Below are positions 1 through 16,683 of a stretch of DNA of 20,000 bases, piece by piece; position 1 is the stretch's first letter, and every line of letters starts with the position of its first letter. This DNA comes from an uncultured virus (IMG/VR IMGVR_UViG_3300045596_000200) (taxonomy: Duplodnaviria; Heunggongvirae; Uroviricota; Caudoviricetes). The stretch lies in the IMG/VR virus record IMGVR_UViG_3300045596_000200. The stretch is one strand, 5' to 3'. The notes beneath the pieces are model-generated. The model was not told the DNA's origin. It saw nothing but the letters and a program-made list of their open reading frames with translations, and did no database searches. The translations under genes were made by a program, and so were the position numbers.

Positions 1-1923
1 ATCATGAGCTACGGCATGGCATGGGCGGGCTCCGCCCCCGGGCCCGTGTCCCCGAAGGACTGGCTGGACGGCATCTACGACTACGCATCCCGCGTCATGA
101 CACCGGACAAGGTGTTCATGGGGCTTCCCGCCTACGGATGGAACTGGCAGATCCACGACACGCCGGAGAACCTCGGCGATACCTACCGGGGCGTCTCCAA
201 CACCTACTACGCGGCGAAGAACTGGATGACCGGCAAGTACAATTTCACGGACGACAAGCCGCCGCAGCCGTTCATCCCGATCCTCGCGTACTGGGACGAC
301 TACAACAAGGTGCCCTACGCCTTCCCGCAGGTCTACGACTTCATGGAAGGCCGCGACGCCACAAGCTACGAGTACCCGCAGCTGAACGGCACCTACAACC
401 GGCATCATTACCTGACCGCCTACGGCAAGCAGCAGAAAGCCACGTTCGGCACAATCTACGCGGACCACGACGGGACGCCGGACAGCCACTCCGGCATCGT
501 CTCCAGCGAAAACGGCATCGCCGTCATGGGCGACGCGGGGAGCGCGGCCTACCGCTTCACCGTCCCGTCCTCCAGAACCTACGACATCGCGGTGCGCCTC
601 TGCTATCCCTTCTGGGACAAGAACGGCATCTACGTGTCGATCGACGGAACCAGGAAACATTTCGCGGAGTCCCGCCTGTGGTGGCCATACTGGAGAAGCA
701 CCTTCTGGGCGAGCCTCGCGAACGGGATCACGCTTTCCGCCGGGTCGCACACCATCACGGTGTCGGTCGACGTGAAGGGCGTGCAGTTCCACGGGTTCCG
801 CGTCTGCTCCGCTTTTTCCGAAGCGCCGTCCGCCGGGTCCGCGTCCTTCACGCTCTCTCCCCGGAAGCTCATCGACGTTAACGGGAACGAATGCCAACCG
901 GACAAAGGCTTCAAGCTCACGGCCGAGGTGCTCCGCAGGAAACCCGACTCCGCCCTCATCTGGTACGCGGACTTCGAGGACTACGGCATGCTCGACACCG
1001 GCTACTGGCAGACCCTGTCCGGCTCGTGGAAGATCTGGCGGGAGGACGACCACTCCGAGGAGCGCGTCTACTCGCAGCTTGACGGAAGAGGGAAATTCGC
1101 ATGGAACTACGACGGCTTCCGCGACATCCACCTTCGGGCGCGCCTCGCGTTCCCCTCCGGAAGCACCGGACGCGCCGGGGTCTTCTGCGGAAGCCTGTTC
1201 TGCTGCCTCGACTATGACACGCAGGCCGTGGAACTCTGGGACGGCAGCACGAAACTCGGAAGCTACAGCCAGAGCATCAGCCAGACAAGAACGGCCGACC
1301 TCAGGACCGCCCCCACGATGTACACCATCGAGATGCGGATCCGGGGAAACACGGTGCGCGTCTATTCCGGCGCGTCCTCCACGCTCCGCTTCACCGTGAG
1401 CACCAGCGGATTCACCGGCGGCGAGGCAGGATACCAGAGCGACAACCGGACCGTGTGCGAGCTTCTCCGCATGGGCGACGCATGGACCTACGAGCCATAC
1501 GAGCGCTTCGACGTCACATTCCCGGACGGCACCGTAACGCAGTATGGCAGGATCGGCCGCACGGACTGCATATGGGACGACGAGTTCCAGGTGTTCACGC
1601 TGACCTCCGACGTGGAGGAACCCGCCACGAGAAGCGAATCCATCTCCATGGACTACGAGTTCTACCACTCGGCGCAGCTCGCCCTCGAATGCGGAAGCGA
1701 CTACACGATTACCGTCACGCCACGGGACATCAACATCTGGCTGTCACGCCTGTTCCTCGGGGACGCGGACGGATTCTCGATCCTCTACTACCAGGACGTG
1801 GACTCGCTCGTCTACTGGGCGAACCAGGCGGCCTACCGGTGGAGGCTCCGCGGGATCGCGATCTGGTCCCTCGGACAGGAGGACCTGAGGCTCTGGGAGG
1901 CGCTCCCAAGGCAAACCGGATAA
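1..1923 (+). CDS. Phage GH18-like (YaaH/SleL-type) glycosyl hydrolase / tail-associated protein with a large beta-rich insert; 5'-partial
   Basis: Frame is open from base 1. GH18-like segments IMSYGMAW..PGPVSP and KVFMGLPAYGWNW at the start, and YYQDVDSL..LRGIAIWSLGQED at the end. Lies immediately upstream of the holin. Confidence 0.75.
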   Translation: MMSYGMAWAGSAPGPVSPKDWLDGIYDYASRVMTPDKVFMGLPAYGWNWQIHDTPENLGDTYRGVSNTYYAAKNWMTGKYNFTDDKPPQPFIPILAYWDDYNKVPYAFPQVYDFMEGRDATSYEYPQLNGTYNRHHYLTAYGKQQKATFGTIYADHDGTPDSHSGIVSSENGIAVMGDAGSAAYRFTVPSSRTYDIAVRLCYPFWDKNGIYVSIDGTRKHFAESRLWWPYWRSTFWASLANGITLSAGSHTITVSVDVKGVQFHGFRVCSAFSEAPSAGSASFTLSPRKLIDVNGNECQPDKGFKLTAEVLRRKPDSALIWYADFEDYGMLDTGYWQTLSGSWKIWREDDHSEERVYSQLDGRGKFAWNYDGFRDIHLRARLAFPSGSTGRAGVFCGSLFCCLDYDTQAVELWDGSTKLGSYSQSISQTRTADLRTAPTMYTIEMRIRGNTVRVYSGASSTLRFTVSTSGFTGGEAGYQSDNRTVCELLRMGDAWTYEPYERFDVTFPDGTVTQYGRIGRTDCIWDDEFQVFTLTSDVEEPATRSESISMDYEFYHSAQLALECGSDYTITVTPRDINIWLSRLFLGDADGFSILYYQDVDSLVYWANQAAYRWRLRGIAIWSLGQEDLRLWEALPRQTG

Positions 1924-1947
1924 CGGAATACGGATACCAGCACCCAT

Positions 1948-1979
1948 GGCTGCCCGCGACCGCGCGGACGGCCTTTTTT
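1948..1979 (+). terminator. Putative intrinsic terminator between the tail gene and the lysis module
   Basis: Imperfect stem ggctgcccgcg/cgcggacggcc followed by tttttt. Confidence 0.5.
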
Positions 1980-2007
1980 CATGCCAATTTTCAAAGGAGG
2001 TCTACAC

Positions 2008-2421
2008 ATGAAGGAATTCTGGTCAATCATCCAGCTCATCTTCGCCGGAATCGGCGGATGGCTCGGCTACTTCCTCGGAGGCTGCGACGGGCTCCTTGTA
2101 GCGCTCATCATCTTCGTGGTCTGCGACTACATCACCGGCGTGCTGTGCGCCATCTCCGACAGGAAGCTCTCAAGCGCCGTCGGATTCAAAGGGATCTATC
2201 GCAAAATGCTGATCTTCATCCTGGTCGGCATCGCCAACATCCTCGACATCCACGTGCTCGGCCACGAAGGGGTCCTGAGGACGGCGGCCATCTTCTTCTA
2301 CATCTCGAACGAAGGGCTCTCCCTCACCGAGAACGCCGCACACCTCGGCCTTCCGATACCGGAGAAGCTCAAAAACGCACTGGAACAACTGCACGACAGA
2401 AACGACAAGGAGGAACAATAA
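2008..2421 (+). CDS. Phage holin (toxin secretion/phage lysis holin family)
   Basis: RBS AAAGGAGG before ATG 2008. Hydrophobic protein with the motifs DYITG, LSSAVGFKGI and FFYISNEGLSLTENAAHLGLPIP. Directly upstream of the endolysin. Confidence 0.93.
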   Translation: MKEFWSIIQLIFAGIGGWLGYFLGGCDGLLVALIIFVVCDYITGVLCAISDRKLSSAVGFKGIYRKMLIFILVGIANILDIHVLGHEGVLRTAAIFFYISNEGLSLTENAAHLGLPIPEKLKNALEQLHDRNDKEEQ

Positions 2422-2422
2422 C

Positions 2423-3391
2423 ATGGCCATCAAAGGAATCGACGTAAGCCACTGGCAGGGAAACATCGACTGGGCGAAGGCAAAGGCGTCCGGTGTCCGG
2501 TTCGCCATTATCAAGGCCGGAGGCTCGGATGACGGATTCTACACGGACAGCAAATGGGAGGCCAATTACAAGGATGCGAAGGCGAACGGCATCGCGGTCG
2601 GGGCCTACTACTTCGTCGGCCCGAAATGCGTAAACGCCACCGCCGGGAAAGCGGACGCCGAAAGGTTCATCCAGCTCCTCAAAGGCAAGCAGCTCGAATA
2701 CCCGGTGTTCATGGACAACGAGGCGCAGCCCGCCTCGGCGAAGGCCGGGATCACGGAGGCGACGATCGCCTTCTGCGAGACGATGGAGGCCGCCGGATAC
2801 TTCGTCGGCATCTACGGCTCCACAAATTCCGGGTTCCGCGAGAGGATGGACGACTCCAAGCTCACCGCATACACCCACTGGGTCGCGCAGTACGCTTCGA
2901 AATGCACCTACGCCGGATCCTACGGCATCTGGCAGTATTCCTCCACGGGACGCGTAAGCGGCATCAACGGAAACGTCGACATGGACCTGTCCTACGTGGA
3001 CTACCCGTCCGCGATCAAGAACGGCGGCTTCAACGGATACGCGAAAGGCACGACGACCGGCGGCACCCCGGCGGCAACGCCCGCGAAGAAGCCCGTGGAC
3101 GAGATCGCCTCCGAGGTGATCGCCGGGAAATGGGGAAACGGAGACAACCGAAGGAACAGGCTCACCGCCGCCGGATACGACTACAACGCCGTGCAGGCAA
3201 AGGTTAACGAGAAGCTAGGGGCATCCGCCGCCAAGCCATCCGCCGCCTACCACACGGTGAAGCGCGGCGACACGCTCTCGGCCATCGCAAGCAGGTACGG
3301 CACAAGCGTCTCTGCCATCCAGAAGCTCAACGGCTCGCTCATCAGGAACGTGAACCTCATCCAGATCGGCTGGAAGATCCGCGTGAAATGA
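2423..3391 (+). CDS. Endolysin: GH25 muramidase, Cpl-7 domain and LysM domain
   Basis: GIDVSHWQG and D-x-E (MDNE) of GH25, WQYSS. Cpl-7-like segment EIASEVIAGKWGNGDNRRNRLTAAGYDY. LysM segment HTVKRGDTLSAIASRYGTSV. RBS AGGAGG. Confidence 0.93.
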   Translation: MAIKGIDVSHWQGNIDWAKAKASGVRFAIIKAGGSDDGFYTDSKWEANYKDAKANGIAVGAYYFVGPKCVNATAGKADAERFIQLLKGKQLEYPVFMDNEAQPASAKAGITEATIAFCETMEAAGYFVGIYGSTNSGFRERMDDSKLTAYTHWVAQYASKCTYAGSYGIWQYSSTGRVSGINGNVDMDLSYVDYPSAIKNGGFNGYAKGTTTGGTPAATPAKKPVDEIASEVIAGKWGNGDNRRNRLTAAGYDYNAVQAKVNEKLGASAAKPSAAYHTVKRGDTLSAIASRYGTSVSAIQKLNGSLIRNVNLIQIGWKIRVK

Positions 3392-3407
3392 CCATCCACA
3401 CCCGTAC

Positions 3408-3450
3408 GCCCGCAGGCGTTCCCTCGTCGGAATGCCTGCGGGCCTTTTTT
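3408..3450 (+). terminator. Rho-independent terminator after the endolysin
   Basis: 15-bp stem gcccgcaggcgttcc/ggaatgcctgcgggc (one G-U pair), 6-nt loop, then a T6 tract. Confidence 0.85.
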
Positions 3451-3505
3451 GTTTCCGCTCAAACCCCGGTCCTTTCTCCAGTGGAAAGCGACGGGAGGTG
3501 TTTTC

Positions 3506-3928
3506 ATGAACACAGAGCAAAAAGAACAAATACGCAGCCTCCGCAAAGAAGGACACGGATATGCCGCGATAGCCCGTGCGCTCGGGCTCACCAAAAGCCA
3601 GGTATCGGCCTACTGCAGACGAAACGACCTCGCCGGAAGGCTCGCCGATCCCGATGGAGGGAACACGCCGGGCCAGTCATACTGCCAATGCTGCGGGAAA
3701 CCTCTCACGCAGCGACCCGGTCGGAAGGAAGCGAGGTTCTGCTCCGACGCCTGCCGCCTCAGATGGTGGAACAGCCACCCCGGCGACATCAACAGGAAGG
3801 CGTTCTACACATTCACCTGCGCCTGCTGCGGGAAACCCTTCACGGCCTATGGAAACCGCCACCGCAAGTACTGCTCCCACGTCTGCTACATCCAGGACCG
3901 GTTCAAAGGGGGTGACGGGCATGACTGA
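3506..3928 (+). CDS. HTH plus double zinc-finger DNA-binding protein of the integration module
   Basis: RBS GGGAGG. N-terminal HTH (GYAAIARALGLTKSQVSAY) and two CxxC…CSxxC fingers (CQCCGK..FCSDAC and CACCGK..YCSHVC). Confidence 0.8.
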   Translation: MNTEQKEQIRSLRKEGHGYAAIARALGLTKSQVSAYCRRNDLAGRLADPDGGNTPGQSYCQCCGKPLTQRPGRKEARFCSDACRLRWWNSHPGDINRKAFYTFTCACCGKPFTAYGNRHRKYCSHVCYIQDRFKGGDGHD

Positions 3929-4085
3929 CGAGCAGTTCGAACGCGAAAAACTCTATCAGGCCAGCATGGAGATGTTCCGCGCGATGCTGGGGCAGGGGCT
4001 CGTCACCGAGGAGGAATACGCGGTCATCGATGCCAGAATGCGCGAGAAATACAGCCCGGTGATCGGCACACTGTCACCCCGGTAG
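3921..4085 (+). CDS. Small SHOCT-like protein (54 aa), possible recombination accessory factor
   Basis: MTDEQFEREKLY…MLGQGLVTEEEY (SHOCT-like GxxTEEEY). Its start overlaps the end of the upstream gene and it precedes the recombinases. Confidence 0.7.
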   Translation: MTDEQFEREKLYQASMEMFRAMLGQGLVTEEEYAVIDARMREKYSPVIGTLSPR

Positions 4086-4088
4086 CAC

Positions 4089-4119
4089 TTGCTATGTGTC
4101 TGTTTCAGAGTGATATATG
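4089..4119 (+). promoter_or_regulatory. Putative sigma70-type promoter for the recombinase pair
   Basis: TTGCTA at 4089-4094 and TG-a-TATATG at 4111-4119, upstream of RBS GAAAGGAG. Confidence 0.4.
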
Positions 4120-4142
4120 GACGAGACGAAAGGAGTGATACC

Positions 4143-5936
4143 ATGCCGAAAATCACAAAGATAGAGCCAAAGGTCAAGGCTCTTCCGGCGCGGAAAAAGG
4201 TGGCGGCATACGCCCGCGTGTCCATGGAGACCGAACGGCTTCACCACTCCCTCTCCGCGCAGATAAGCTATTACTCGGAGCTGATCCAGAAGAACCCGGA
4301 ATGGCGATACGCAGGCGTCTACGCCGATGAAGGCATCAGCGGCACCGGCACGGCGAGACGCCCGGAATTCCAGAGAATGCTCGAGGACTGCGAGGCCGGG
4401 AAAATCGACATCGTCCTCACCAAGAGCATATCGCGGTTCGCCCGGAACACGGTCGACCTTCTGGAGGCCGTCCGGCATCTCAAGGACCTGGGCATCGAGG
4501 TTCGGTTCGAGAAGGAACACATCAATTCGCTGTCCGGCGACGGCGAGGTCATGCTGACACTGCTCGCCTCGTTCGCACAATCCGAATCCGAGAGCATCTC
4601 CACCAATGTGAAATGGGGAATCCGAAAGCGCATGCAGGCAGGCATTCCATACGCCAACGGCCACATGAACGTGTACGGCTACCGGTGGGAAGGTGACGAG
4701 ATGGTCATCGTCCCTGAGGAGGCCGCGATCGTGCGGCGCATCTACCAGAACTTCCTTGACGGGAAATCCCGGCAGGAAACAGAGAAGGAGTTCGCCGCCG
4801 AAGGCATCAAGACCAGAGGCGGCTACCGTTGGGTGGATTCCAACCTGAAGCTGATCCTCACGAACGTCACCTATACCGGCAACATGCTCTACCAGAAGGA
4901 ATACGTCTCCGATCCCATCACCGGAAAGGTCAAGAAGAACCACGGCGAGCTGCAGCAATACTACGTGGAGAACACGCATCCCGCCATCATCGACAAAGAG
5001 ACATTCGACTACGTACAGGCTGAGATGGCACGGCGCAGGGAGCTCGGCTGCTTTGGCAACAAAGCGCTCACGCTCAACTGCTTCTCCACGAAAATCAAAT
5101 GCGGACTGTGCGGACGGAGCTTCGTCCGTTCCACAAGAACAAACCGCGCAAAGATGAGCCTGCTCGGCGAGAAATATACCTTCTGGGCCTGCACATCCCA
5201 TAAAAGGAACAACTGCCCGTATTGCAAGAGCGGAACCATCCGCGAGGACGTACTGAAAGAGGAATGCGCCCGGATGCTCGGAACACCGGAATTCGACGAG
5301 GATGCCTTCAGCGAACGCGTGAAGCAGATCACCATACCCGAGGCCGGGACCATGATCTTCGAGTTCACGGACGGAAGCACTCTTGAACACCACTGGTACC
5401 GGAACGCGAAAAAGGAAAGCTGGACGGACGCTCACAGGAAAAGAGCCTCCGAATACAGGAAACGGCATCCGACGACCCGCAGCGACATCACCTGCTTCAC
5501 CACGAAGATCCGATGCGAGGAATGCGACTGCAACTACCGCAAGCAGACCACGACCATGGCAGACGGACATAAAAACGCCTACTGGTCATGCGCCGACAAG
5601 AAAACGCATCCCGGGAAAAGCCTGCGTGAGGATCATCTGAAGGAAATCATCGCACAGGTGCTGGGTCTTGAGGAATTCGGCGAGGAAGCATTCAAGGAAC
5701 GCATCGACTTCATCTCGGTCCGTGGGCTGACGCATCTTACATTCCATCTCAAAGATGGCTCGACTGTCAAACGCGACTACGAATTCCGTAAGGAAGGCAT
5801 CCCATGGACGGACGAGCGCCGCGAAAAGCAGACCAAAGCCATCCGGGATAGCCTCACGCCGGAACGCAGGCAGAAAACCAGCGAAAGTACGAAGAAAACA
5901 AGGAGTGAGAAACATTGGGACAGCAAAAGAAAGTGA
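4143..5936 (+). CDS. Large serine recombinase 1, with a duplicated zinc-ribbon module
   Basis: VAAYARVS (catalytic Ser), YADEGISGT, TKSISRFARNT, recombinase domain, and two Zn-ribbon-like segments (KIKCGLCG, KIRCEECD). RBS GAAAGGAG before ATG 4143. Confidence 0.93.
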   Translation: MPKITKIEPKVKALPARKKVAAYARVSMETERLHHSLSAQISYYSELIQKNPEWRYAGVYADEGISGTGTARRPEFQRMLEDCEAGKIDIVLTKSISRFARNTVDLLEAVRHLKDLGIEVRFEKEHINSLSGDGEVMLTLLASFAQSESESISTNVKWGIRKRMQAGIPYANGHMNVYGYRWEGDEMVIVPEEAAIVRRIYQNFLDGKSRQETEKEFAAEGIKTRGGYRWVDSNLKLILTNVTYTGNMLYQKEYVSDPITGKVKKNHGELQQYYVENTHPAIIDKETFDYVQAEMARRRELGCFGNKALTLNCFSTKIKCGLCGRSFVRSTRTNRAKMSLLGEKYTFWACTSHKRNNCPYCKSGTIREDVLKEECARMLGTPEFDEDAFSERVKQITIPEAGTMIFEFTDGSTLEHHWYRNAKKESWTDAHRKRASEYRKRHPTTRSDITCFTTKIRCEECDCNYRKQTTTMADGHKNAYWSCADKKTHPGKSLREDHLKEIIAQVLGLEEFGEEAFKERIDFISVRGLTHLTFHLKDGSTVKRDYEFRKEGIPWTDERREKQTKAIRDSLTPERRQKTSESTKKTRSEKHWDSKRK

Positions 5937-7498
5937 CCACGATCCCGGCGTCCCGTACGCGCTTTTCCTCCACTCCCATCACCGAGAAGAAAAAACGCAG
6001 GGTCGCCGGATACGCCCGCGTCTCGACCGACCATGACGACCAGTTCACCAGCTACGAGGCGCAGATCGACTACTACACGAACTACATCAAATCCCGTGAC
6101 GACTGGGAGTTCGTGAACGTCTACACGGACGAGGGAATCAGCGGAACCGGCATCAAGAAGCGTATTGGCTTCCAGAGCATGGTCGAGGACGCCCTCGACG
6201 GAAAGATCGACCTCATCGTCACCAAGTCCGTCAGCCGATTCGCCAGAAACACCGTGGACAGCCTGACCACGATCCGCAAGCTCAAGGATCATGGCGTCGA
6301 GTGCTATTTTGAGAAGGAGAACATCTGGACGTTCGACGGCAAGGGCGAGCTTCTCATCACGATCATGAGCTCCCTCGCGCAGGAGGAATCCCGCAGCATT
6401 TCGGAGAACTGCACCTGGGGCCAGCGGAAACGTTTCGCGGACGGCAAGGTGACGGTCCCGTTCAACCGGTTCCTCGGATACGACCGCGGCCCGAACGGGG
6501 AACTCGTCCTAAACGAGAAGGAAGCCGAGACCGTGAAACGCATTTACCGAATGTTCCTTCAGGGCATGACCTACAACGGGATCGCCAAGAAGCTGGCCGC
6601 GGACGGCATCAAGACGCCGGGCGGCAAGAACAATTGGAGCATCAGCACCGTCAGATCCATCCTCTCCAACGAGAAATACAAGGGCGACGCCCTATTGCAG
6701 AAGTCCTACACCGTCGACTACCTGACGAAGAAGACGAAGGTCAACGAGGGCGAGATCCCGCAATACTACGTGGAGGGCGACCACGAGGCCATCATCCCTC
6801 CGGAGACCTTCGACATGGTCCAGCGCGAGATGGAGAACCGCGGCAAGGGGAAGAAATACCACAGCGGCGTACACCAGTTCTCCAGCAAGATCCGGTGCGG
6901 AGAGTGCGGCTCCTTCTACGGCTCGAAGGTCTGGCACTCGAACGACAAATACCGTAAGGTCATCTGGCACTGCAACCACAAGTACGACCACGGGGAGAAA
7001 TGCAGAACACCTGCCTTGACGGACGACGAGGTGAAGGCCGCCTTCCTGTCAGCCGCGAACAAGCTCCTCGCCTCGAAAGCCGAGGTCATCTCCAACGGCA
7101 AGGAGATGCTTGGACTGCTCTTCCAGACCAACGAGATGGAGCAGAAACGCGAGCGTCTGATCGAGGACGCGCAGATCGTCGCCGACGCCGGCCAACAGAA
7201 CATCACGGAGAACGCCCACACCGCGCTCGACCAGACCGACTACCAGAAACGCTACGACGACCTTTCCGCCCGGTACGACAAGCTCAAGAAGGAAATCACT
7301 GAGCTGAGCGACAGGATACAGGAAACGCAGTCCCGGAAAGCCGGTGTCGAGGACTTCCTCAAGGCATTCGAGAAAACGCCCGGCACCCTGACGGAATTCT
7401 CCGTCGACGCCTTCAACGGACTGGTCGACCATCTCACCGTCCATGCCAAGGACGACATACGCGTGACCTTCCGGAACGGACAGGAAATCAAGGCATAA
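5915..7498 (+). CDS. Large serine recombinase 2 (serine integrase)
   Basis: VAGYARVST, YTDEGISGT, TKSVSRFARNT, Zn ribbon KIRCGECG..WHC and a coiled-coil C-terminus. TTG start with RBS AGGAG, overlapping recombinase 1 by 22 nt. Confidence 0.93.
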   Translation: MGQQKKVTTIPASRTRFSSTPITEKKKRRVAGYARVSTDHDDQFTSYEAQIDYYTNYIKSRDDWEFVNVYTDEGISGTGIKKRIGFQSMVEDALDGKIDLIVTKSVSRFARNTVDSLTTIRKLKDHGVECYFEKENIWTFDGKGELLITIMSSLAQEESRSISENCTWGQRKRFADGKVTVPFNRFLGYDRGPNGELVLNEKEAETVKRIYRMFLQGMTYNGIAKKLAADGIKTPGGKNNWSISTVRSILSNEKYKGDALLQKSYTVDYLTKKTKVNEGEIPQYYVEGDHEAIIPPETFDMVQREMENRGKGKKYHSGVHQFSSKIRCGECGSFYGSKVWHSNDKYRKVIWHCNHKYDHGEKCRTPALTDDEVKAAFLSAANKLLASKAEVISNGKEMLGLLFQTNEMEQKRERLIEDAQIVADAGQQNITENAHTALDQTDYQKRYDDLSARYDKLKKEITELSDRIQETQSRKAGVEDFLKAFEKTPGTLTEFSVDAFNGLVDHLTVHAKDDIRVTFRNGQEIKA

Positions 7499-7991
7499 GA
7501 ACAGCCTGGCTATCGAGCAAAGAGTGCCGATGGCCAGACTGTTCTCCGTCTATTGCAAAAACGTGAAATATGGCATCTGATCTTCGTGATCTGATGTCAG
7601 ACCGATACAATCCAAAGCTGAATCTCCTGAGAAGCCTGGCGTAAGCCTCCAAATTATAAGACTCGTCTAAGCTCAGAATCAGGTAACGTTCCCCGCCGTC
7701 TACTATCCAGGAATCGGCCCTGTGATAACCATTCCTCTCATAGAACGCGAGCCGCCTCTCCCGCTGCACAGCATTGACGGCCTTTGGGTCAGGCATTTCG
7801 ACGTTCAGGAAAACATCCTCTCTGCGATAAGTGCCGTAGCATTCAAGAATCTGCTTGCCTATGGCTTCCGGATTGCAGTTGTATGCCCGATGCAGGAGGT
7901 ACACGAAATCCGGTGTGATGATACGGCTGTGATTCTTGTCGTAGAGATACCGCCGATACTCCTCATACTGTTTATTCGTGATGCTGTGCAT
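7488..7991 (-). CDS. Hypothetical protein with a partial GNAT acetyltransferase-like C-terminal half (possibly chimeric cargo)
   Basis: Likely start MHSITNKQYEEY after AAGGG. Segment IGKQILE…LNVEMPD…QRERRLAFYERNGY resembles the GNAT motif A/B region. More AT-rich than neighbouring genes. Confidence 0.55.
   Translation of the reverse strand: MHSITNKQYEEYRRYLYDKNHSRIITPDFVYLLHRAYNCNPEAIGKQILECYGTYRREDVFLNVEMPDPKAVNAVQRERRLAFYERNGYHRADSWIVDGGERYLILSLDESYNLEAYARLLRRFSFGLYRSDIRSRRSDAIFHVFAIDGEQSGHRHSLLDSQAVLMP
7498..7545. terminator. Long hairpin between convergent genes
   Basis: agaacagcctggctatcg / cgatggccagactgttct, a 16/18 inverted repeat directly at the recombinase 2 stop. Confidence 0.6.
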
Positions 7992-8040
7992 GCGCTTTTC
8001 CCTTATATACAAAAATTCGCCGGTCATGTAACCGACGTTC

Positions 8041-8074
8041 AAAGCGACACCCCTGAATGAAAACCGACACCCCT
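8041..8074 (+). repeat. Direct repeat AAA(G/C)CGACACCCCT, two copies with 20-bp period, near the prophage end
   Basis: aaagcgacacccct at 8041-8054 and aaaccgacacccct at 8061-8074. Confidence 0.8.
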
Positions 8075-8720
8075 ATGCACATGCAACGTTGAATTGTATC
8101 CAATTTTGCGTCTTGTTTTCGTAGACGCGCCCGTGGTAAGGCTCGATGATTTCGACCAGCGTCTTGACTATGCAGGTGGGCGTGTAGAATTCGCCGGCGT
8201 TCTTGCCCTCCTGCTCGGCGAACTTGGCCAGGCAGTACTCGTAGGTACGACCCAGCACGTCCTGCGTGCCGTCCTTGCCGGCCATCTTCACGTTGGTGAA
8301 CAGGTCGACGACATCGCCCAGCATGCGCTTGTCGAGCTCCTGACGGGCGAAGTTCTTGGGGAGGATGCCCTTGAGCGCCTTGTTCTCCGTCTCGATCTCG
8401 CGCATGGCCTCGTCGATGACCTTGCCAATCTCGGGCGTGTGCGCCGCCTTCGCGATCTCCTCCCAGCGGGCTCCCTTCGGGACCCAGAAGATGTTCTCGA
8501 AGCTGTACTCGTCGCGGTCCTCCTCGAAGCCCTCGCCCTCATCCACGAGCTCCTGGTGGCGCTGCTCGAACTTGTCCGAGATGTACTTGAGGAAGATGAG
8601 GCCGAGCACTACGTTCTTGTACTCCGAGGCGTCGATGTGGCCGCGCATGCTGTCCGCTGCCTTCCAGATCTTCTCCTCGAAGCCCAGCTCCTGAGTGTTC
8701 GATTGCTTCTTGCCTGCCAT
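8073..8720 (-). pseudogene. hsdM: Type I RM methyltransferase subunit M, 5' part only (200 aa plus 15 foreign residues)
   Basis: IWKAADSMRG, EYKNVVLGLIFLKYISD, DVLGRTYEY, GEFYTP, EPYHGRVY, then the unrelated ENKTQNWIQFNVACA* in place of DPCCGSGG. No NPPF/Y motif. Confidence 0.92.
8091..8150. other. Putative hybrid attachment site (attL/attR) inside hsdM
   Basis: Recognisable HsdM sequence stops at GTC TAC GA (about 8119). Inverted repeat GCGTCT (8108-8113)-N9-AGACGC (8123-8128) spans the junction, and composition changes from AT-rich to GC-rich. Confidence 0.72.
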
Positions 8721-8729
8721 GTTGCCGCC

Positions 8730-11700
8730 TTAATCCATAACCCGACTGTCAGCCCAGAGCTCGCACTGCCGCATGACGGTGTCGAGCGCCTCTTCCTGGC
8801 CGTCGGGTGGGTACTTGTACTTCTTGAGGAGGCGCTTTATCGAGCGGCGCATGCCCGCACGGGCGCTCTCCTTCCTCTGCCAATCTATCGTAGCGTTGTT
8901 TCTCAGCTGCTCGGTCAGCTCCCGCGTGATGGCGACCAGCTGGTCGTTGTCGTAGAAGTCCTTGACCGCCTGCGGCTTGGTGAGCGCGTCGTAGAAGGCG
9001 AGCTCCTCCTTGCCCAGGCCGAGCTTCTCGCCCTCCTCGCGCTCCGCCATCATCTCGTGCGCCATCTTGAGGAGCTCCTCGATGACCTGCGCGTTGGAGA
9101 GCATGCCGTTGAGGTAGCCGTTGACGGAGCGCTGGAGCATGTCGGAGAACTTCTCCGCCTGGACGACGCTCGCCTTCCTATAGTCGCGTACCTGCTCCTT
9201 GATGAGGCGCTTGAGCGTCTCGTAGGCGATGTTCTTCTCCTTCATGCGGCGGATCTCCTCGAGGAAGCCCTCGTCGAAGAGCGACACCTCCACCTTGTCC
9301 TTGCTGTCGAACAGGTCGATGACGCCCTCGCTGTGCACGGACTGCTCGAGGATGGCAGCGACGCGGCGGTTGAACTCGTCGTAGGTCATGCCCCCGCCGC
9401 CGGTGCCGCTGCGGCCCAGGATGCGCATCACCTGCACGCGCAGGACGTCAATGAACGCCGCCTCGTGCTGGTCCTCCTCAGAGACCATGCTCTTGCAGAG
9501 GCTCTCCGCCTTCGCAAGGAGCTGCGCCTGCTTCAGGAAATCGTCGCGCGTTTCCTCGCGTGCCGGGTTGAGCAGCCAGTCGGCGCACTCGGATATGATC
9601 GTCGCGAGCGTAACCTTGTCGGACGTGAACACCCGCTCGCGGTAGCGCGTGCCGTGCAGGAGGTCGCGGCAGACCGATAGCTTCTCCTGAAACTTGGGAT
9701 AGGCCGTCTTGGCGACGTCCATGTCCCCGTAGTTCCTGCGGTCGCGGTTCGTGTAGGACTTCATGGCGTACTTGAGGGCGTTCGCGATGCCGATGTAGTC
9801 GACGATGAGGCCGCCCTCCTTGCCCGGGTGCATGCGGTTGACGCGGGCGATGGCCTGCATGAGGTTGTGGCCCTTCATGGGCTTGTACATGTACATGGTG
9901 GCAAGCGAGGGGACGTCGAAGCCCGTGAGCCACATGTCCACGACGATGGCGATCTTGAGTGGGTCATCGTCGCTTTTGAAGCGCCGCTCCATCTCCGCCT
10001 TATGCTCCTTGCCGCCCACGATGTCGAACCATTCCTCGGGGTCCTGGTTGCTCGTAGTCATGACCACGCCCACCTTGTTGCTCCACTCCGGGCGAAGGCG
10101 CATCAGCTCGTAGTAGATCTTCATGGCGATGGGGCGCGAGTAGGCCACAATCATCGCCTTGCCGGCGAGCAGCCCCGCGCGGTTCTCCTCGTAGTGGGAG
10201 ACTATGTCGCGGCAGAGGTCGGCCACCGTCTCAGAAGCGCCGAGGATGCCGTCGAGTCCGGACATGAGGTGCTTGCTGCGCTGCGTGGTCTCCTCGTCGT
10301 GCTCGTCGGAGAACTCCCTGTAGGCGGCATCGAGGCTCTCAAGCGCATCTGCATCGAGATTGAGGGCCACGACCCTGCTCTCGTAGTAGACGGGGACCGT
10401 TGCCTCGTCCTCGACTGCCTGCGTCATGTCGTAGACGTCGATGTAGTCGCCGAACACCTCGCGGGTGTTGCGCCCGTCCAGCGCAATGGGCGTCCCCGTG
10501 AAGCCGATGTAGCTCGCATTGGGCAGCGCGTCGCGCATGAGCTTTGCGGCGCCAATCGAGATGGTGCCGTCGGGCTTTATCTCCTCGGTGAGGCCGTACT
10601 GCCCGCGATGAGCCTCGTCAACCATGACGATGATGTTGTCGCGTTCGCTGAGCGGGCCGTCTCCCTCGGAGAACTTCTGCATGGTGGTGAACACGATGCC
10701 GTTTGCCTCGCGACCGGAGAGCAGGTCCTTGAGGTTGCCCTTGCCCTTGTCGCGGTGAAGCGCCTGCACGGGAACCTGTCTCAGGAACTTGGCGCAGCGG
10801 CCGAACTGCCCGAAGAGCTGGTCATCGAGGTCGTTCCTGTCTGTCACGACAACGAATGTGGGATTCTTCACCAGCTGCTGCATGAGGTGCGCAAAGAAGA
10901 CCATCGAGAGAGACTTACCAGACCCCTGCGTGTGCCAGAAGACGCCGATCTGGCCGTTCCCGCCGACGGCGGAGAGAGAGCGCGCTGCCGCCTTCCTCAC
11001 GCCGAAGTACTGGTGGTAGGCAGCCAGAATCTTCACCGTCTTGTCGGCGGAGTCGTTGAAGCAGATGAAGTTGCGGATGATGTCGCAGAGCCGCTCCTTG
11101 CGGAACATGCCCTCAAGCGTGGTCTTCCAGTCGGCGGTTTGGGTATCGGAGTAGTCCCCATCTGTGCTCTTCCAGGCGACGTAGCGGTCTTCGGGCGCGG
11201 TGATGGTGCCGAGGCGCGTCTCGGCCATGTCGCTCATCACGCAGAAGGCGTTGGGCACGAACAGGGAGGGAATCGCCTTCATGTAGTTTCGCAATTGCAG
11301 ATAAGCGTCCGAAGCGCTCGTCTCCTCGCGGGAGGGTGACTTGAGCTCGAAGATGACGACGGGGATGCCGTTCAGGAAGACGATGAGGTCGGGGCGCTTG
11401 TTCTCGTGCTCGACGTACGTCCACTGGTTAACGATGTGGAAGAAGTTCTTCTTGGGATGCCCGTAGTCGACGAGGTAGACGATATCGTCGCGGTCCTCCT
11501 TGCCGTCGAAGTAGTGTACTTCGACGCCCGACTGCAGGTAGTCGGTGAAAACCTCGTTGCGCTGTTCGAGAGAGCCGCCCTCCACCGAGGAGATTTTCAT
11601 CATCGCCTCGTCGATGGCGCTGAAAGGAAGCTTGGGGTTTATGCGGCAGAGGCTCTCCTTGAGAACCCTGGGGAGGAAGACATCCTGGTATAGGTCGCTC

Positions 11701-11828
11701 GTGCGCTCGACGTCGGGACCGTGCAGGTACTCGTAGCCGAGGTTCTCCATGAAATACTGGATGAGCATTTCCTCGTAGAACTCTTCGTTGAACGGAACGG
11801 AGACGGTCGCGTACTTCATATCGCCCAT
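8730..11828 (-). CDS. hsdR: Type I restriction endonuclease subunit R (1032 aa)
   Basis: RPDLIVFLNGIPVVIFELK nuclease motif, WHTQGSGKS Walker A, DEAHR, FTGTP, VDMWLTGFDVP, QAIARVNR. RBS GGAGG before ATG 11828. Confidence 0.96.
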   Translation of the reverse strand: MGDMKYATVSVPFNEEFYEEMLIQYFMENLGYEYLHGPDVERTSDLYQDVFLPRVLKESLCRINPKLPFSAIDEAMMKISSVEGGSLEQRNEVFTDYLQSGVEVHYFDGKEDRDDIVYLVDYGHPKKNFFHIVNQWTYVEHENKRPDLIVFLNGIPVVIFELKSPSREETSASDAYLQLRNYMKAIPSLFVPNAFCVMSDMAETRLGTITAPEDRYVAWKSTDGDYSDTQTADWKTTLEGMFRKERLCDIIRNFICFNDSADKTVKILAAYHQYFGVRKAAARSLSAVGGNGQIGVFWHTQGSGKSLSMVFFAHLMQQLVKNPTFVVVTDRNDLDDQLFGQFGRCAKFLRQVPVQALHRDKGKGNLKDLLSGREANGIVFTTMQKFSEGDGPLSERDNIIVMVDEAHRGQYGLTEEIKPDGTISIGAAKLMRDALPNASYIGFTGTPIALDGRNTREVFGDYIDVYDMTQAVEDEATVPVYYESRVVALNLDADALESLDAAYREFSDEHDEETTQRSKHLMSGLDGILGASETVADLCRDIVSHYEENRAGLLAGKAMIVAYSRPIAMKIYYELMRLRPEWSNKVGVVMTTSNQDPEEWFDIVGGKEHKAEMERRFKSDDDPLKIAIVVDMWLTGFDVPSLATMYMYKPMKGHNLMQAIARVNRMHPGKEGGLIVDYIGIANALKYAMKSYTNRDRRNYGDMDVAKTAYPKFQEKLSVCRDLLHGTRYRERVFTSDKVTLATIISECADWLLNPAREETRDDFLKQAQLLAKAESLCKSMVSEEDQHEAAFIDVLRVQVMRILGRSGTGGGGMTYDEFNRRVAAILEQSVHSEGVIDLFDSKDKVEVSLFDEGFLEEIRRMKEKNIAYETLKRLIKEQVRDYRKASVVQAEKFSDMLQRSVNGYLNGMLSNAQVIEELLKMAHEMMAEREEGEKLGLGKEELAFYDALTKPQAVKDFYDNDQLVAITRELTEQLRNNATIDWQRKESARAGMRRSIKRLLKKYKYPPDGQEEALDTVMRQCELWADSRVMD

Positions 11829-12004
11829 CACTTCGCCTCCTTCACGACGGCATCGGCAAGGATGGACGAAATGAGCGCACTCACGCTCATGCACTTCTTC
11901 TCTGCCAGCTCCCTGACTGCGCTCTTGAGCTCTGGAGTCACGGCGAATATAACCCTCTCAGTCTTCTTGCCATTGAGGAGAATCTGCCTGTTGGGCTGCT
12001 CCAT
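11828..12004 (-). CDS. Small ribbon-helix-helix (CopG/Arc-like) DNA-binding protein
   Basis: KTERVIFAVTPELKSAVRELAEKKCMSVSALISSIL fits a strand-helix-helix pattern. RBS GGAGG before ATG 12004. Its stop overlaps the hsdR start (TGATG). Confidence 0.72.
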   Translation of the reverse strand: MEQPNRQILLNGKKTERVIFAVTPELKSAVRELAEKKCMSVSALISSILADAVVKEAK

Positions 12005-12133: not shown

Positions 12134-12496
12134 TCGGCACCGGGGGCCGCACTCATCGCGCTGTCGCTTCGATGGCGCGTTGCCCCACCCGGATGCCGAG
12201 CGCCCTGGGAAGCCCGGACGACCGTCCGGGCAAGACACGCCGCCACGTGGTGCTCGACCTCGCCTGCGCGAACCGCCTCTACAGCGAGCTCAACCAGTGG
12301 GGCTACCAGCAGAACCAGGCCACCCACGCCCTGAACCGCATCGCCTACTACCTCAGGCGCGAGGCCATGGATGCATCAGACATCCTGGAGGAGCTCACCT
12401 CGGCTGGACGACAGCTGGAGCGCCTGCGCGAGAGGACGGGTGAGCTCGCTGCCCCCCGTCCGCGAGATGGCGGAGTCGCGCCTGCTCTTTCTCTAG
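12134..12496 (+). pseudogene. mobC: MobC-like relaxosome accessory protein remnant
   Basis: ELNQWGYQQNQATHALN resembles the MobC ELxxIGxNxNQxAxxxN motif. Apparent frameshift in the C6 run at 12452-12457 (the other frame reads VREMAESRLLFL*). Start is unclear. Confidence 0.6.
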
Positions 12497-12506
12497 GTGG
12501 CTGCCC

Positions 12507-13137
12507 ATGCCGCTACTCAAGCCCATATCTGGCCACACATCCTGCAAGGGCATCTACCGCTACCTCACCAAGGACGGGCGCGCTCTCGCCGCCAACTACC
12601 TGAACCTAGACGTCCTCGAACGCGAGGGCACCGCCTTCGACTGGGCTGCCGCGATGGACGACACGCGCTCGCGCTGGAGAAACGACACGCCCTGAGGAGG
12701 CAGGCCCTGCCGTACCTACAAGCACTACGTGCTCTCGCCGAATCCCAAGGACCGCGTGAGCCTGGGCACGCTCCGCGAGCTCACCGTCACCTAGGCGCGC
12801 GAGCACTTCGGCGACTTTGAGGTGGCCTCGTCTACCACGACGACAACACCGGGCACATCCCACATGCCCACGTGGTCGTGAACAACACAAATATCGTCAC
12901 GGGAAGGCGTCTTCAGGACCCCGACCCCAAGGAGCTCAAGCACTCCCTGCAGCGCATGGCCAAGCAGCGCGGGCTATCGGACTTCGACAGCGCCGAGGAG
13001 AGGGCGTCCGTGCGCGGGCGTGTGCGACCCCACACGCTGCAGGCAGAGCACGTGCGCCGCGCGGAGCGCGAGATATTGCCGAGAAGGGCGGCTACTCATG
13101 GGTGGAGGACATCCGCGCGCGCATCCGCACGGCGGCG
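12507..13137 (+). pseudogene. MOBP-type relaxase pseudogene
   Basis: MPLLKPISGHTSCKGIYRYL (Tyr motif), YKHYVLSP, VYHDDNTGHIPHAHVVVN (HUH). In-frame stops at 12693 (TGA) and 12792 (TAG), frameshifts at about 12828 and 13075, and the C-terminus appears to be missing. Confidence 0.85.
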
Positions 13138-13659
13138 GACCTCGCCGATGCGAGCATGTACCGCGGCAACGTCGTCACCAACTGGTCGCTTGACCTCTCC
13201 GGCGCCATGCGCGAGGGTGGCATGCTGCTCCTCTCCATGCGCTGGTACCCCGCACCGGGACAGGACGCGTCCGCCGGGCCGGAGGGCCTCCCCATAGCCC
13301 GCAGGCGCGACGGGTTCTGCGTCGTCGTTGCGGACAGCGAGGATGTGCCGCAGCTTTCCATGGTGACGGTGGACGGTGAGCTCGCGCTCCTGCGCGTGGG
13401 AGACGGCCTCGTGGACTGCAACCGCCTTGCCTGGGCCTCGCGCATTGCCGACGGTCTGCCCGTCCAGGCGGTTTCGGCTCATCGCACGCTTAGCATGCTC
13501 ATGAGTGATGGCACGGACGGCATTGATGTGGAGGCCAAGGTTTGCCGCCTGATGGGCTTTGACCCTGCAACGTATGAGTTTGTGGAGGATTTATCAGAGA
13601 TGGCATATGCCGATAAAGAAGATGCTGATGGCAGGTTCAGCGAGAATCCACCTACCTAA
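13138..13659 (+). pseudogene. 3' portion of a hypothetical gene joined to the relaxase remnant
   Basis: Protein-like open frame DLADASMYRGNVVTNW…SENPPT* with coding-like GC3 bias, no obvious start of its own and no relaxase resemblance. Confidence 0.45.
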
Positions 13660-13731
13660 AAGTACGTATAGTCTGACATTGCAAAATGCAATAATTTCTC
13701 CTGAAGCAAAGCGCGTCTATCAGGAGTCACC

Positions 13732-15990
13732 ATGCACGTTAACGATGAAGACAGACCCGAAGTTCAGTTCTCCTTCGAGGAAATGCCAGCGCTTCCACCT
13801 GGTGCAATGGAAGATTCCGACGCTCAAGGTCAAGACGAGCCCATCCGTATCGAGTTCGACGAGAGCATCGATAAAGCAGAGCGAGCAGACTACATCACCG
13901 CTGCGGCTATAGGCGCTTCGACAGGCGTGCTCAACATTTTCTGGCAGAAGCGGTTCGACCTGTCCGAGGCTCTCACGTGGGGCAAGGAGAAGATGGGAAG
14001 CTTCGTCTTCAATGCTGCAAAGGGCGCGGGATTCAAGCCGGATGGAAAAGACCTGAAGGACGCAATCCGTTTCCTTGAGGGTATGTTTCCTCTTGCAAGC
14101 GACAGACTGACCCCCGAGTTTGGCGGCGGCCTCCAGCATCACTTGAGGGACTTCGCCCATCACCCCTCACCCGTCGGTCTTCTCATGTCGATACTTGCCC
14201 AGTTCACAGGCAAGGGCTACGGCACCGACACCAGCGGCGCCTTCGTGATACTCGACCTCCCCGCAGACGCCCTGATAGGAAAGACCTTCCCTGAGAAATT
14301 GTTCTACGGGACGATTATCTGGGCGATGCACCTAGCGAGCGACATGGCGGGATCAAGCAGAGCATTGGGCGAGGGTACTGGCATACCTGGGCCAATCTTT
14401 TCGTTCCTAAAAGAACTCTCAGCACTTCCCGTCTTCAAGAAAGAAGGTGCAGACAACGCCTTTTCCAAGTGGATCTCAAAACTGTTCAACGGCACGTTGA
14501 TTCGCGATGCGGACGGCAATCCTATCCGCATCGACTTCAGAACGGAACTTGGAGTTGCCGACCAGGCGCTTTCACAGGCGAAATCTGTCATAGCGAACGA
14601 GTGCCTTGTCAGGGGCTATTACTTCTTGAGCCGCCTAAAGGACGAGCTCTCACGTAACGACGTACAGTCGCTTAAGGACTTTGATCGCATAGACGTGAAG
14701 AGGGTGATTCCAACCGACGAGCGCTCTCTTATTCGCATGCTCACCATATCGAGTTCCGTGTTTGTCCTCACCAACTTGGGAATTGCTGTAGGCAAGACCG
14801 CCGTAACATCCAAGGGCGATCGCAAGAAGTTTGCAGGCGGCGTATTGCTCAACCTGAATTTCGTCAGCATTGGCCGAATGGCGATGGCCATTGCAAGCGA
14901 CTCTAAGTACATCGCCGAGGACTTGAAAGACTATCTCAATAAGCGCGCTGAAGAAATGAATGCGTTTACGGAGGACTTCAAGCTGCTCAGACTGAATGAC
15001 CGGGAGGCGCGCCTTCTGTTCTCCTATCAGGTCATCGCCGTTAAAAAGGACATCGAACTCACCAAGGACGACAAGCACAGAGCTGCAAAGAGCGCCTGGC
15101 TTGAAGAGTTCAAAACCAGGCAGGCAGACCAGATGGGCTGCGATGCGGCAATATACTTCATCGATGAGGCAAGCGTGGCGGAAGAGATGCAGAAGGCTTT
15201 CGATGAGGACGCTTCCTCGTGGCCAACGCTACTCGCCATGGAGCTCTGGCTCTTCAAGCCGTACTACTCCTTCGATGCCGACTGGAAAGAGCGTCTGAAG
15301 GGCGTCAAATACAAGAATGACTATGTAGGGAAAGACTTCCTCAATGCACAGGACGTCATCGACAAGAAAAAGATCGATGAGGTGAAGAAAACCTACAAGC
15401 ACTTTACAGGTTTGCTTACCGGCGGCAGGGCCAAGACAGCAATCATTGCAGGGGGCACAGTTGCGGTTGGCATTGCGACAGCGGGCACCGCGTATGTTCT
15501 CGCCCCGGTCATTGCACCCGTGATTGCCGGAGAAGCAGTTGCAGGTCTCTCTGGCGCAGCTCTTACCAGTGCGAGTCTTGCTGCCGTTGGCGGCGGATCG
15601 CTTGCTGCGGGCGGCTTGGGAATGGCGGGTGGCACGGCGATAATCACCGGAGGCGGAGCCTTGCTGGGCATGGCTACCACAGGCGGCGCCGCGTTTGTCA
15701 GCGGCCTTAGCGAACATGCAGAGCAGTATGCCCTGAACCAGTGCGCACAGCTGCTCACGGTCTGCCAACAGCTCCCTAATGCAGACGACTCAACAAGCGC
15801 GTTCATGCTTCGCACGAAAGACCATATCGAGCGAATCCGCGACAAATGCCTCGAAGATATTGAGGCAGAGAAGACGAAGGGCAAAGAGGGCAACCAGAAG
15901 TCAATCAAATCGATGACCAAGGCAGCCAAATATCTAGAGAGGTGTGCGAAGGAGCTGCAAAAACTAGCGGACAATACTTCTGGAGCATAA
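13732..15990 (+). CDS. Uncharacterised 752-aa protein with a His-rich motif and a C-terminal glycine-zipper membrane segment
   Basis: RBS AGGAG and a long intact ORF. Motif LQHHLRDFAHHPSPVG. Gly/Ala-rich hydrophobic stretch GLSGAALTSASLAAVGGGSLAAGGLGMAGG followed by a charged helical tail. Confidence 0.85.
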   Translation: MHVNDEDRPEVQFSFEEMPALPPGAMEDSDAQGQDEPIRIEFDESIDKAERADYITAAAIGASTGVLNIFWQKRFDLSEALTWGKEKMGSFVFNAAKGAGFKPDGKDLKDAIRFLEGMFPLASDRLTPEFGGGLQHHLRDFAHHPSPVGLLMSILAQFTGKGYGTDTSGAFVILDLPADALIGKTFPEKLFYGTIIWAMHLASDMAGSSRALGEGTGIPGPIFSFLKELSALPVFKKEGADNAFSKWISKLFNGTLIRDADGNPIRIDFRTELGVADQALSQAKSVIANECLVRGYYFLSRLKDELSRNDVQSLKDFDRIDVKRVIPTDERSLIRMLTISSSVFVLTNLGIAVGKTAVTSKGDRKKFAGGVLLNLNFVSIGRMAMAIASDSKYIAEDLKDYLNKRAEEMNAFTEDFKLLRLNDREARLLFSYQVIAVKKDIELTKDDKHRAAKSAWLEEFKTRQADQMGCDAAIYFIDEASVAEEMQKAFDEDASSWPTLLAMELWLFKPYYSFDADWKERLKGVKYKNDYVGKDFLNAQDVIDKKKIDEVKKTYKHFTGLLTGGRAKTAIIAGGTVAVGIATAGTAYVLAPVIAPVIAGEAVAGLSGAALTSASLAAVGGGSLAAGGLGMAGGTAIITGGGALLGMATTGGAAFVSGLSEHAEQYALNQCAQLLTVCQQLPNADDSTSAFMLRTKDHIERIRDKCLEDIEAEKTKGKEGNQKSIKSMTKAAKYLERCAKELQKLADNTSGA

Positions 15991-15997
15991 AACAGCT

Positions 15998-16600: not shown

Positions 16601-16655
16601 CGGAGATTTTCTATACGGCTACTAAATAGCATCTAATATCACAGTGTGGAACATG

Positions 16656-16683
16656 AGGGGCCTTCCTGCTAAGGAAGGCCCCT
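16656..16683. terminator. Hairpin terminator between convergent genes
   Basis: Perfect 12-bp inverted repeat aggggccttcct-gcta-aggaaggcccct. Confidence 0.75.

Follow-up and report, generated by a model that had tools for sequence, protein, structure and literature searches.

A prophage with paired large serine recombinases very probably occupies the motif I aspartate codon of hsdM, a methylase-gene landing site shared by its relatives

Several mobile elements are known to split the gene into which they integrate: the Listeria phages A118 and phi10403S reside in comK and, in B. subtilis, SPbeta interrupts spsM and the skin element interrupts sigK. In SCCmec, the paired large serine recombinases CcrA and CcrB act on rlmH, which codes for an rRNA methyltransferase, at its 3' end and leave it functional. 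Gene-splitting elements are also cited in the accessible passages of PMC4701971, and the closest described systems appear in the same paper and in the accessible passages of two others: streptococcal integrative and conjugative elements (ICEs) with triplets of serine integrases, and also Tn1806, inserted in hsdM (PMC4701971; Lao et al. 2020, PMC7563491; Camilli et al. 2011, PMC3055811), for which restoration of hsdM by excision has already been suggested. Here we present an analysis of a 20,000-nucleotide stretch from an uncultured member of the Caudoviricetes (IMG/VR record IMGVR_UViG_3300045596_000200), referred to throughout as the window, in which hsdM, the methylase gene of a type I restriction-modification (R-M) system, is broken beside one end of a temperate phage that encodes two large serine recombinases, A and B. 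We consider it very likely that this phage integrated into hsdM by serine-recombinase recombination at the aspartate codon of motif I, the S-adenosylmethionine (SAM)-binding motif, and that the recombinase clade shares a landing site in the methylase motif.

The break lies in a minus-strand frame at 8073-8720 that encodes a 215-residue product. On translation, it reads as normal HsdM up to EFYTPTCIVKTLVEIIEPYHGRVY (the last normally read residues being GEFYTPTCIVKTLVEIIEPYHGRVY, that is, ...EPYHGRVY) and then turns into ENKTQNWIQFNVACA and a stop, so that 15 phage-coded codons close the frame beyond its host-derived part. In Pfam, the truncated protein matches HsdM_N (E 8.4e-31), and its match to N6_Mtase is confined to positions 3-51 of a 311-position profile, which places the break just ahead of motif I. 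An earlier reading of the letters alone (the original prediction) had noticed the switch to 15 unrelated residues and had expected motif I to come next. The translation and the profile limits bear out the first point, and the nearest relative found, HsdM of Olsenella phocaeensis (L001), bears out the second: it is 96% identical in amino acid sequence across residues 1-201 and at the window's break point reads RVY-DPCCGSGGMF, with motif I uninterrupted. Nucleotide homology between the window and L001 (91.65% over 4084 bases) begins at 8119, with none before it, and the two recombinase genes, placed about 600 bp from the break by the original prediction, are ~620 bp away by measurement. The Olsenella locus (L001 6890-11560) is free of prophage and its R-M system has decayed, with hsdR split into frames of 341 and 679 residues.

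The other end of the element was found in metagenome assemblies. Runs X1, X2, X4 and X6 contain window 7300-9300, and their contigs were aligned to L001:8500-13500. X1, X2 and X4 are a possible source of the window and not independent of it, X6 was not flagged in this way, and runs X7-X20, in which no more than 0.28-0.46 of the words sampled from that interval occur, were left out. On the near side, a contig reaches L001 10602 in all four runs and, in X2 and X4, goes on with AAACAAGACGCAAAATTGGATACAATTCAA, the window's own phage arm. On the far side, a contig spans L001 10601-11511 in X1, X2 and X4 (911 bases, 71 differences, 0 gaps), an interval covered by three short contigs in X6; the letters that precede this hsdM 3' part in X2 and X4, GGGGTTGGTATCAAAGATAGAGTCTTAATA, are those of a different phage arm. 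The far alignment ends 50 bases short of the end of hsdM, and nothing aligns to the L001 region downstream. The near and far contigs match in depth, at 9.78/7.33 in X1, 12.4/11.4 in X2, 35.2/35.4 in X4 and 5.7/5.0 in X6. The near and far contigs overlap at exactly L001 10601-10602, GA, bases 1 and 2 of the motif I aspartate codon, and such an exact 2-bp overlap is the signature of serine-recombinase exchange. The far prophage end called for by the original prediction is thus present: the hsdM 3' half, whose absence would have pointed to a simple deletion or an assembly chimera, is joined to phage DNA in four runs and begins at the GA, L001 continuing GAC CCG TGC TGC GG. One 151-base piece, record 6 of X1, was the only one to bridge the bacterial attachment site (attB); it differs at 11 of 74 letters, looks like another organism's gene and was set aside.

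The break recurs among relatives of the pair. Recombinase B has 538 relatives in viral contigs and 569 in species-representative genomes, and the best 80 matches of each set, 160 loci, were surveyed. Where enough DNA precedes the B homolog to tell, in 132 loci, its immediate upstream neighbour is an A-like gene in 124. A scan for methylase motif X with a stop soon after it flagged 37 of the 160 loci, and 36 remained once L134 had been rejected by eye as a false positive. The same break point was found in 36 distinct host flanks, the window's included, and the hsdM break is therefore not a chance event. Twelve of 24 near-side flank fragments match HsdM_N and N6_Mtase, ending at profile positions 42-51 of the latter; three match N6_Mtase only (two of them below the curated cut-off), one matches SpoIVB peptidase, and eight have no Pfam match. 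The 28 far-side fragments comprise 13 with N6_Mtase beginning at profile position 52, three with Eco57I, two with MmeI_Mtase, three with N6_N4_Mtase beginning at the DPPY motif, five with other matches (pyrophosphatase-like, histidine kinase, another recombinase, DUF2726 and PhzF-like) and two with none; three of the 21 methylase matches on this side lie below the curated cut-off.

On four contigs (G002, G004, L131+L253 and L124+L246), both gene halves are seen around a prophage of 56-58 kb. The survey of homologous recombinase pairs proposed by the original prediction shows insertions at the same codon in many methylase genes, and neither of the outcomes that would have refuted that prediction was obtained. 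In G002 and G004, N6_Mtase is split into positions 2-42 and 2-52, respectively, beside the recombinases, and 47-310 and 48-311 some 56-57 kb away on the same strand; both halves are open and free of internal stops. By coordinates, the halves lie 56.0 kb apart in L131+L253 and 58.2 kb apart in L124+L246. G002 is the Absicoccus porci isolate of L128/L259, with a 55.8-kb prophage in a type I methylase gene.

The nearest record to the window, a 12.1-kb viral fragment (G001), is identical to window 1-8120, and its 89-base flank beyond the junction differs from the window's. This flank encodes AGEFYTPHEVSLLISEIVAHHLENRQTIKIY (GEFYTPHEVSLLISEIVAHHLENRQTIKIY), from another N6-methylase that breaks off at the codon interrupted in hsdM, with a weak N6_Mtase match. 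One phage has thus used two different methylase genes. The window alone holds one junction only, as would be expected of a deletion, of a chimeric assembly or of a chance insertion at a secondary site in which the recombinases had no part, but we regard that explanation as negligible: each of the four runs shows both junctions, with 2 bp of overlap and equal depth; the identical phage arm stands beside another methylase flank in a viral record that is independent; the break falls at one and the same codon in 36 distinct flanks; and G002 and G004 carry split methylase halves around a prophage.

The architecture of the attachment sites was read from the same junctions. GA stands at the exchange point in every junction examined, including all 36 distinct flanks. 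The right arm of the phage attachment site (attP; Table 1) is the loose end found behind L001 10602 in the metagenome contigs, and a half-site pattern search places the window's half-site at the junction in 40 of the 160 related loci. A search with the left arm returned 68 genomic sites and 13 from viral contigs. In four of these (L215, L216, L221, L278) the left arm is joined through GA to the right arm, an attP-like arrangement, and most of the others run on into D-P-x-C-G-S/T-G... Far junctions of relatives read ...ACIKD[CY]V[LF]I/DPxCGSG... (the slash marking the junction). Assembled from near and far junctions, attP reads GTATCAAAGAT-nnn-GTCTT-nATA-GA-AAnnAAGAC-nnnn-ATTnGATAC, centred on GA, and is an imperfect inverted repeat in which GTATCnAA-n4-GnGTCTT-n4 flanks the GA on both sides. 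It thus has the inverted-repeat arms around a 2-bp non-palindromic core that mark large serine recombinase sites, in which the core is all the identity that attP and attB require. In attB, the left half is weakly conserved (...nTnTAY, with T at -5 in 34/36, T at -3 in 30/36 and Y at -1 in 33/36). The right half is well conserved and consists of the sequence that codes for motif I; base counts from 61 distinct right flanks give it as GA YCC nGC nTG YGG nAS nGG nGG nTT YCT. That the motif I codons serve as attB, with exchange at the GA of the aspartate codon, is accordingly seen at both junctions.

The targets that are not methylase genes resemble the right-half pattern of attB as well, the PhzF-like gene reading DPVCGSGH, and this shared pattern argues that the recombinase recognises DNA sequence and not gene function. 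We favour the explanation that the motif I site is used because it is conserved, widespread and dispensable, the loss of defence being a side effect of unproven adaptive value. This conserved-landing-site view rests on three features: the left half of attB is nearly free to vary, one phage occupies different methylase genes, and look-alike DNA in unrelated genes is also used. The competing proposal, that the target has been selected since a methylase or R-M knock-out benefits the phage, draws on the predominance of DNA methylases among the fragments (21/28 far-side, 15/24 near-side), on their spread over four Pfam families that are all parts of R-M or related defence systems, and on the presence of one phage in two different methylase genes. 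We consider it rather unlikely. By the time an incoming phage integrates, it must already have evaded restriction; phage released from a lysogen lacking HsdM would be unmodified, which is a cost; and non-methylase targets carry the same DNA pattern. A broader form of the proposal is equally doubtful. It holds that a widespread clade of temperate phages of anaerobic Bacillota and Coriobacteriia, defined by the recombinase pair, evolved to use the SAM-binding or catalytic D-P motif of methylase genes as a universal att site under selection for reversible anti-defence and host reprogramming. Each lysogenisation would then turn off one R-M system (type I, IIG/L or beta-class) that excision would restore, and a GNAT gene of the phage would at the same time be driven by the promoter of the host methylase.

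In the explanation that we hold very likely, a temperate phage, ~56-58 kb long by analogy with its complete relatives, has entered hsdM of an Olsenella-like bacterium (Coriobacteriia) by serine-recombinase site-specific recombination, strand exchange having taken place at the GA of the aspartate codon in SAM-binding motif I (D-P-C-C-G-S-G-G). The clade carrying A and B uses the methylase-gene motif as a portable landing site that is dispensable to the host, its targets being mostly HsdM, with some MmeI/Eco57I-type enzymes, some beta-class enzymes at DPPY and occasional look-alike DNA in unrelated genes. From type I biology, the insertion would leave hsdR with the 5' part of hsdM on one side and the 3' part with hsdS on the other, and from the mechanism of serine integrases, precise excision with a directionality factor would rebuild hsdM in frame.

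As the original prediction stated, hsdR is intact: it is one open frame that adjoins hsdM and carries all five expected Pfam domains (HSDR_N, SWI2_SNF2, ResIII, T1R_D3-like and T1RH-like_C), covering the nuclease, the SF2 motor and the C-terminal region. HsdM itself is represented by the 5' part, with HsdM_N and N6_Mtase, and by the 3' part collinear with L001 10601-11511. The specificity gene hsdS would be expected on the far-junction contig. At an 81% identical locus of Bifidobacterium pullorum (L002), the gene order is hsdR (1037 residues), hsdM (504 residues) and a 412-residue frame. HsdR restricts only inside the M2S complex, and a type I system without HsdM neither methylates nor restricts. 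Because HsdR acts only within that complex, the lysogen would be expected to lose both modification and restriction by this system.

An alternative is a regulated reversible switch, or active lysogeny, of the kind by which phi10403S governs comK and SPbeta governs spsM: under certain conditions the prophage would leave its site without lysing the cell, and the type I system would become active again. In its favour, the hsdM halves are collinear with the intact relative, with 0 gaps over 911 bases, hsdR is intact, both halves are open without internal stops in G002 and G004, an intact 923-residue hsdR adjoins the broken gene in L067, and the accessible passages of Ambroset et al. 2016 (PMC4701971) raise the idea for ICEs in hsdM. 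We nevertheless judge such a switch quite unlikely. Intact halves equally fit a recent insertion; neither an empty site nor a circle of the same strain was seen in the four runs, though contigs drop rare variants; neither a directionality factor nor a regulatory link was identified; and the same recombinase clade also occupies unrelated genes and non-coding look-alike DNA, which fits DNA-sequence recognition better than a regulatory role tied to one gene. Of ten large frames tested beside other broken hsdM genes, only that of L067 is an hsdR, and hsdM seems to be the first gene of its operon in most relatives.

The favoured explanation, integration at a shared methylase motif, must be weighed against several observations. 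Excision by a serine integrase needs a separate recombination directionality factor, and no candidate was identified in the element. The far end comes from metagenome contigs aligned to a 92%-identical relative, the letters read being limited to 30 loose ones, and neither hsdS nor the full prophage was seen in them. The 3' half of the interrupted hsdM may carry nonsense codons; the L001 hsdM itself has an in-frame stop at codon 338. No contig of the four runs spans an empty attB of the same strain, and no circle (attP) junction of that strain was seen among their assembled contigs; since contigs drop rare variants, the lack of a bridging contig is not evidence against excision. Among the related loci, 124/160 show no methylase flank; many are too short, the DNA downstream of recombinase B being under 500 bases in 30 of all 160 loci and under 2 kb in 37 more. 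Some long flanks are not methylases, 8/24 near-side fragments being without a Pfam match, and on the far side insertions lie in pyrophosphatase-like, histidine kinase, PhzF-like and another recombinase gene. Finally, the accessible part of Durrant et al. 2022 (PMC10083194) reports that the targets of serine recombinases are not enriched in or near defence genes overall, which would make the window's recombinase clade an exception.

The element that occupies hsdM is a phage. By its gene content, window 1-8118 is one end of a prophage (Table 1), and the minor tail protein, holin, endolysin and integrase genes support its assignment as a prophage in the original prediction. Window 1-8100 gave no match by Megablast against the phage collection. 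Both recombinases carry the PF00239 resolvase domain (E 1.6e-32 and 5.6e-34) with its serine nucleophile, the catalytic motif reading YARVST in B and YARVSM in A, and the two proteins share SRFARN; PF07508 (Recombinase) and PF13408 (zinc ribbon) follow C-terminally in both, with two zinc-ribbon stretches in A. The two proteins are paralogs with 44% identity over 364 residues, and the true start of A is probably the methionine at residue 19. No DUF4368 was detected by Pfam in either. A search of solved structures, made with recombinase B only, gave as the nearest chain 3g13, a conjugative transposon recombinase (E 1.4e-42), and SprA of SPbeta matches too.

Table 1. Features of the window at and around the junction between phage and hsdM
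Feature	Coordinates	Strand	Basis
Phage minor tail protein gene, 5'-truncated at window start	4..1923	+	phrog_3432 E 4e-265
Phage holin	1981..2421	+	PF05105 Phage_holin_4_1 E 4.2e-43; phrog_199 holin
Endolysin (GH25 + CW_7 + LysM)	2423..3391	+	PF01183, PF08230, PF01476; phrog_291 endolysin
Phage helix-turn-helix (HTH) protein, function unassigned	3449..3928	+	phrog_2308 E 1.5e-49; weak HTH_28/HTH_38
Large serine recombinase A, 615-residue frame	4089..5936	+	Resolvase, Recombinase, two Zn_ribbon_recom stretches
Large serine recombinase B, 527 residues	5915..7498	+	Resolvase, Recombinase, Zn_ribbon_recom
GNAT-like gene, last phage gene before junction	7488..8042	- (as truncated hsdM)	Homologs P0007/P0008
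Phage att arm (attP right arm), half-site GTATCCAA-TTTT-GCGTCTT-GTTT on + strand	8091..8118	.	Identical in G001
Crossover dinucleotide	8119..8120	-	TC on + strand, GA on coding strand, motif I Asp codon
hsdM 5' part, host-derived, 200 codons	8121..8720	-	Translation, Pfam, L001 homology, PADLOC MTase_I E 3.8e-72
hsdR, intact	8730..11894	-	1054-residue single frame; five Pfam domains; PADLOC REase_I E 4e-289

An ICE or mobilizable element of the streptococcal hsdM-targeting kind would also bring serine integrases into hsdM, as the accessible passages of the published cases describe for integrase triplets (PMC4701971, PMC7563491, PMC3055811), and 10/160 related loci have a third recombinase downstream. 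That the window's element is of this kind is nonetheless highly improbable. Tail, holin and endolysin genes adjoin its recombinases, which are two and not three, and PHROG and Pfam annotation of the genes in its visible 8.1 kb finds tail and lysis genes and no conjugation gene (relaxase, coupling protein or VirB4). Among the related records, G002, G003, G005 and G006 are classed as proviruses of 100% estimated completeness and G004 as linear (90%). The phage nevertheless has much in common with the streptococcal hsdM ICEs: tandem large serine recombinases at one end of the element, a site-specific disruptive insertion inside hsdM, very short direct repeats (2-8 bp in the accessible published passages, 2 bp here) and the possibility of one or more cargo genes between recombinases and target. 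It differs in that those elements are conjugative with three recombinases, whereas this one is a phage with two, found in Coriobacteriia and many Bacillota. Tn1806, in the accessible description, makes a GGG duplication where the present core is GA, and the published ICE passages that were accessible do not state the position of the site within hsdM. Homologs of recombinase B were found in 31/201 Streptococcaceae genomes at <=61% identity, with no broken methylase beside them in 20 short loci or in 16 wider flanks, and these flanks could not be shown to link the recombinase clade to the streptococcal ICE triplets. A Pseudolactococcus element (G007) was considered as an insertion in a methylase gene and rejected, both strong N6_Mtase matches there being intact.

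Like the elements in comK, spsM and sigK, the phage joins large serine recombinase integration in a coding sequence to the prospect that precise excision restores the frame. For those elements, regulated excision from a single target gene has been shown experimentally, whereas the motif used here is common to many genes. The likeness to CcrA and CcrB lies in adjacent paralogous large serine recombinases and a site inside a methyltransferase gene; the difference is that SCCmec, unlike the window's phage, is a non-phage element and leaves rlmH functional. The multi-targeting large serine recombinases described in the accessible part of PMC10083194 resemble the present clade in that close relatives lie in divergent target genes and in that specificity can be read from aligned bacterial sites around the core dinucleotide. 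The published multi-targeting clade, as described there, has relaxed AT-rich specificity and usually carries DUF4368, whereas the window's clade, with no DUF4368 detected, has many targets since its specific site coincides with a conserved protein motif.

ICEs bearing large serine recombinases in hsdM are thus known. In the literature searched, seen in part and with subscription journals outside its coverage, we found no description of a prophage in motif I of hsdM, of exchange placed at the motif I aspartate codon, of MmeI/Eco57I-type and DPPY-type methylase targets for such elements, or of one phage in different methylase genes. What we did not find in print is therefore the phage itself, the placement at the motif I aspartate codon, the wider methylase range and the use of multiple genes by one phage.

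A specific att site aimed at a protein motif that selection keeps constant across many genes could provide a phage with many landing sites and possibly a wide range of hosts while its recombinase stays as specific as before. Lysogeny by this phage group would remove an R-M barrier and could admit other foreign DNA and alter methylomes. The attB consensus offers a simple route to finding such prophages and to predicting the methylase genes at risk, and the paired recombinases, with their 2-bp core and ~25-bp arms, are candidate integration tools.

The last phage gene before the junction is assigned as GNAT-like through its homologs P0007 and P0008 (PF13508/PF00583; 70% and 54% identity over ~60% of the query), the gene itself giving no direct Pfam, PHROG or PADLOC match. 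Homologs were found by tblastn in 41/160 related loci. The stop of the truncated hsdM lies at 8073-8075, and the GNAT-like gene begins 31 bases downstream. Because it lies directly downstream of the truncated hsdM on the same strand, one may speculate that in the integrated state it is transcribed by read-through from the host hsdR-hsdM promoter. As a candidate directionality factor it was rejected, being GNAT-like and without a PHROG or PADLOC match.

Several of the related loci show features of their own. SpoIVB is a sporulation gene, and in L074 (13497-13559) the insertion lies in such a gene (peptidase S55) at ...THVLIN/, where D-P would follow. In Eubacterium sp. F2 (L266 924-1823), a 3' methylase fragment behind the phage arm matches N6_Mtase to profile position 122 only, and past that point its frame encodes Recombinase and zinc-ribbon domains that belong to another serine recombinase; this gene appears to have been hit twice. 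At L213 (3-902), the phage left arm is joined inside another serine recombinase gene, at ...D/LIVTKSVSRFARN. A right flank that is not a methylase, DTARVSGLDVMHSL..., recurs in the genomes of L203, L224, L228, L257 and L261, with DTVRVSG... in the viral L277; it is nearly identical across five genomes of different taxa and may be a site within another mobile element. In Sarcina sp. (L136 13415-17070 / L221), an attP-like junction, in which the right arm meets the left across GA, precedes by 3.6 kb another right arm, this one adjoining a broken N6-methylase gene; the arrangement may represent a small element or remnant with phage-type arms in tandem with the prophage. The relative prophage in G002 carries an internal 705-residue gene with N6_Mtase (12246-13193; L119).

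On the host side of the window, 13037-16708 is an insertion relative to the Olsenella phocaeensis locus, with a lower G+C of 0.47-0.57 and two plus-strand frames, 13732-15990 and 15998-16600. Its 752-residue frame matches PADLOC BnzB (E 2.8e-32) and PDC-M09A (E 1.1e-13), and from these matches the two frames may form a defence gene pair beside the R-M system. Farther on, a minus-strand gene at 16669-19732 resembles a cell-wall adhesin, with TQ ester-bond and SpaA-fold domains and LPQTG near its end. Several short overlapping frames upstream of it have a fragmented look, and the gene may be frameshifted, in line with an earlier remark on pseudogenes in this DNA.

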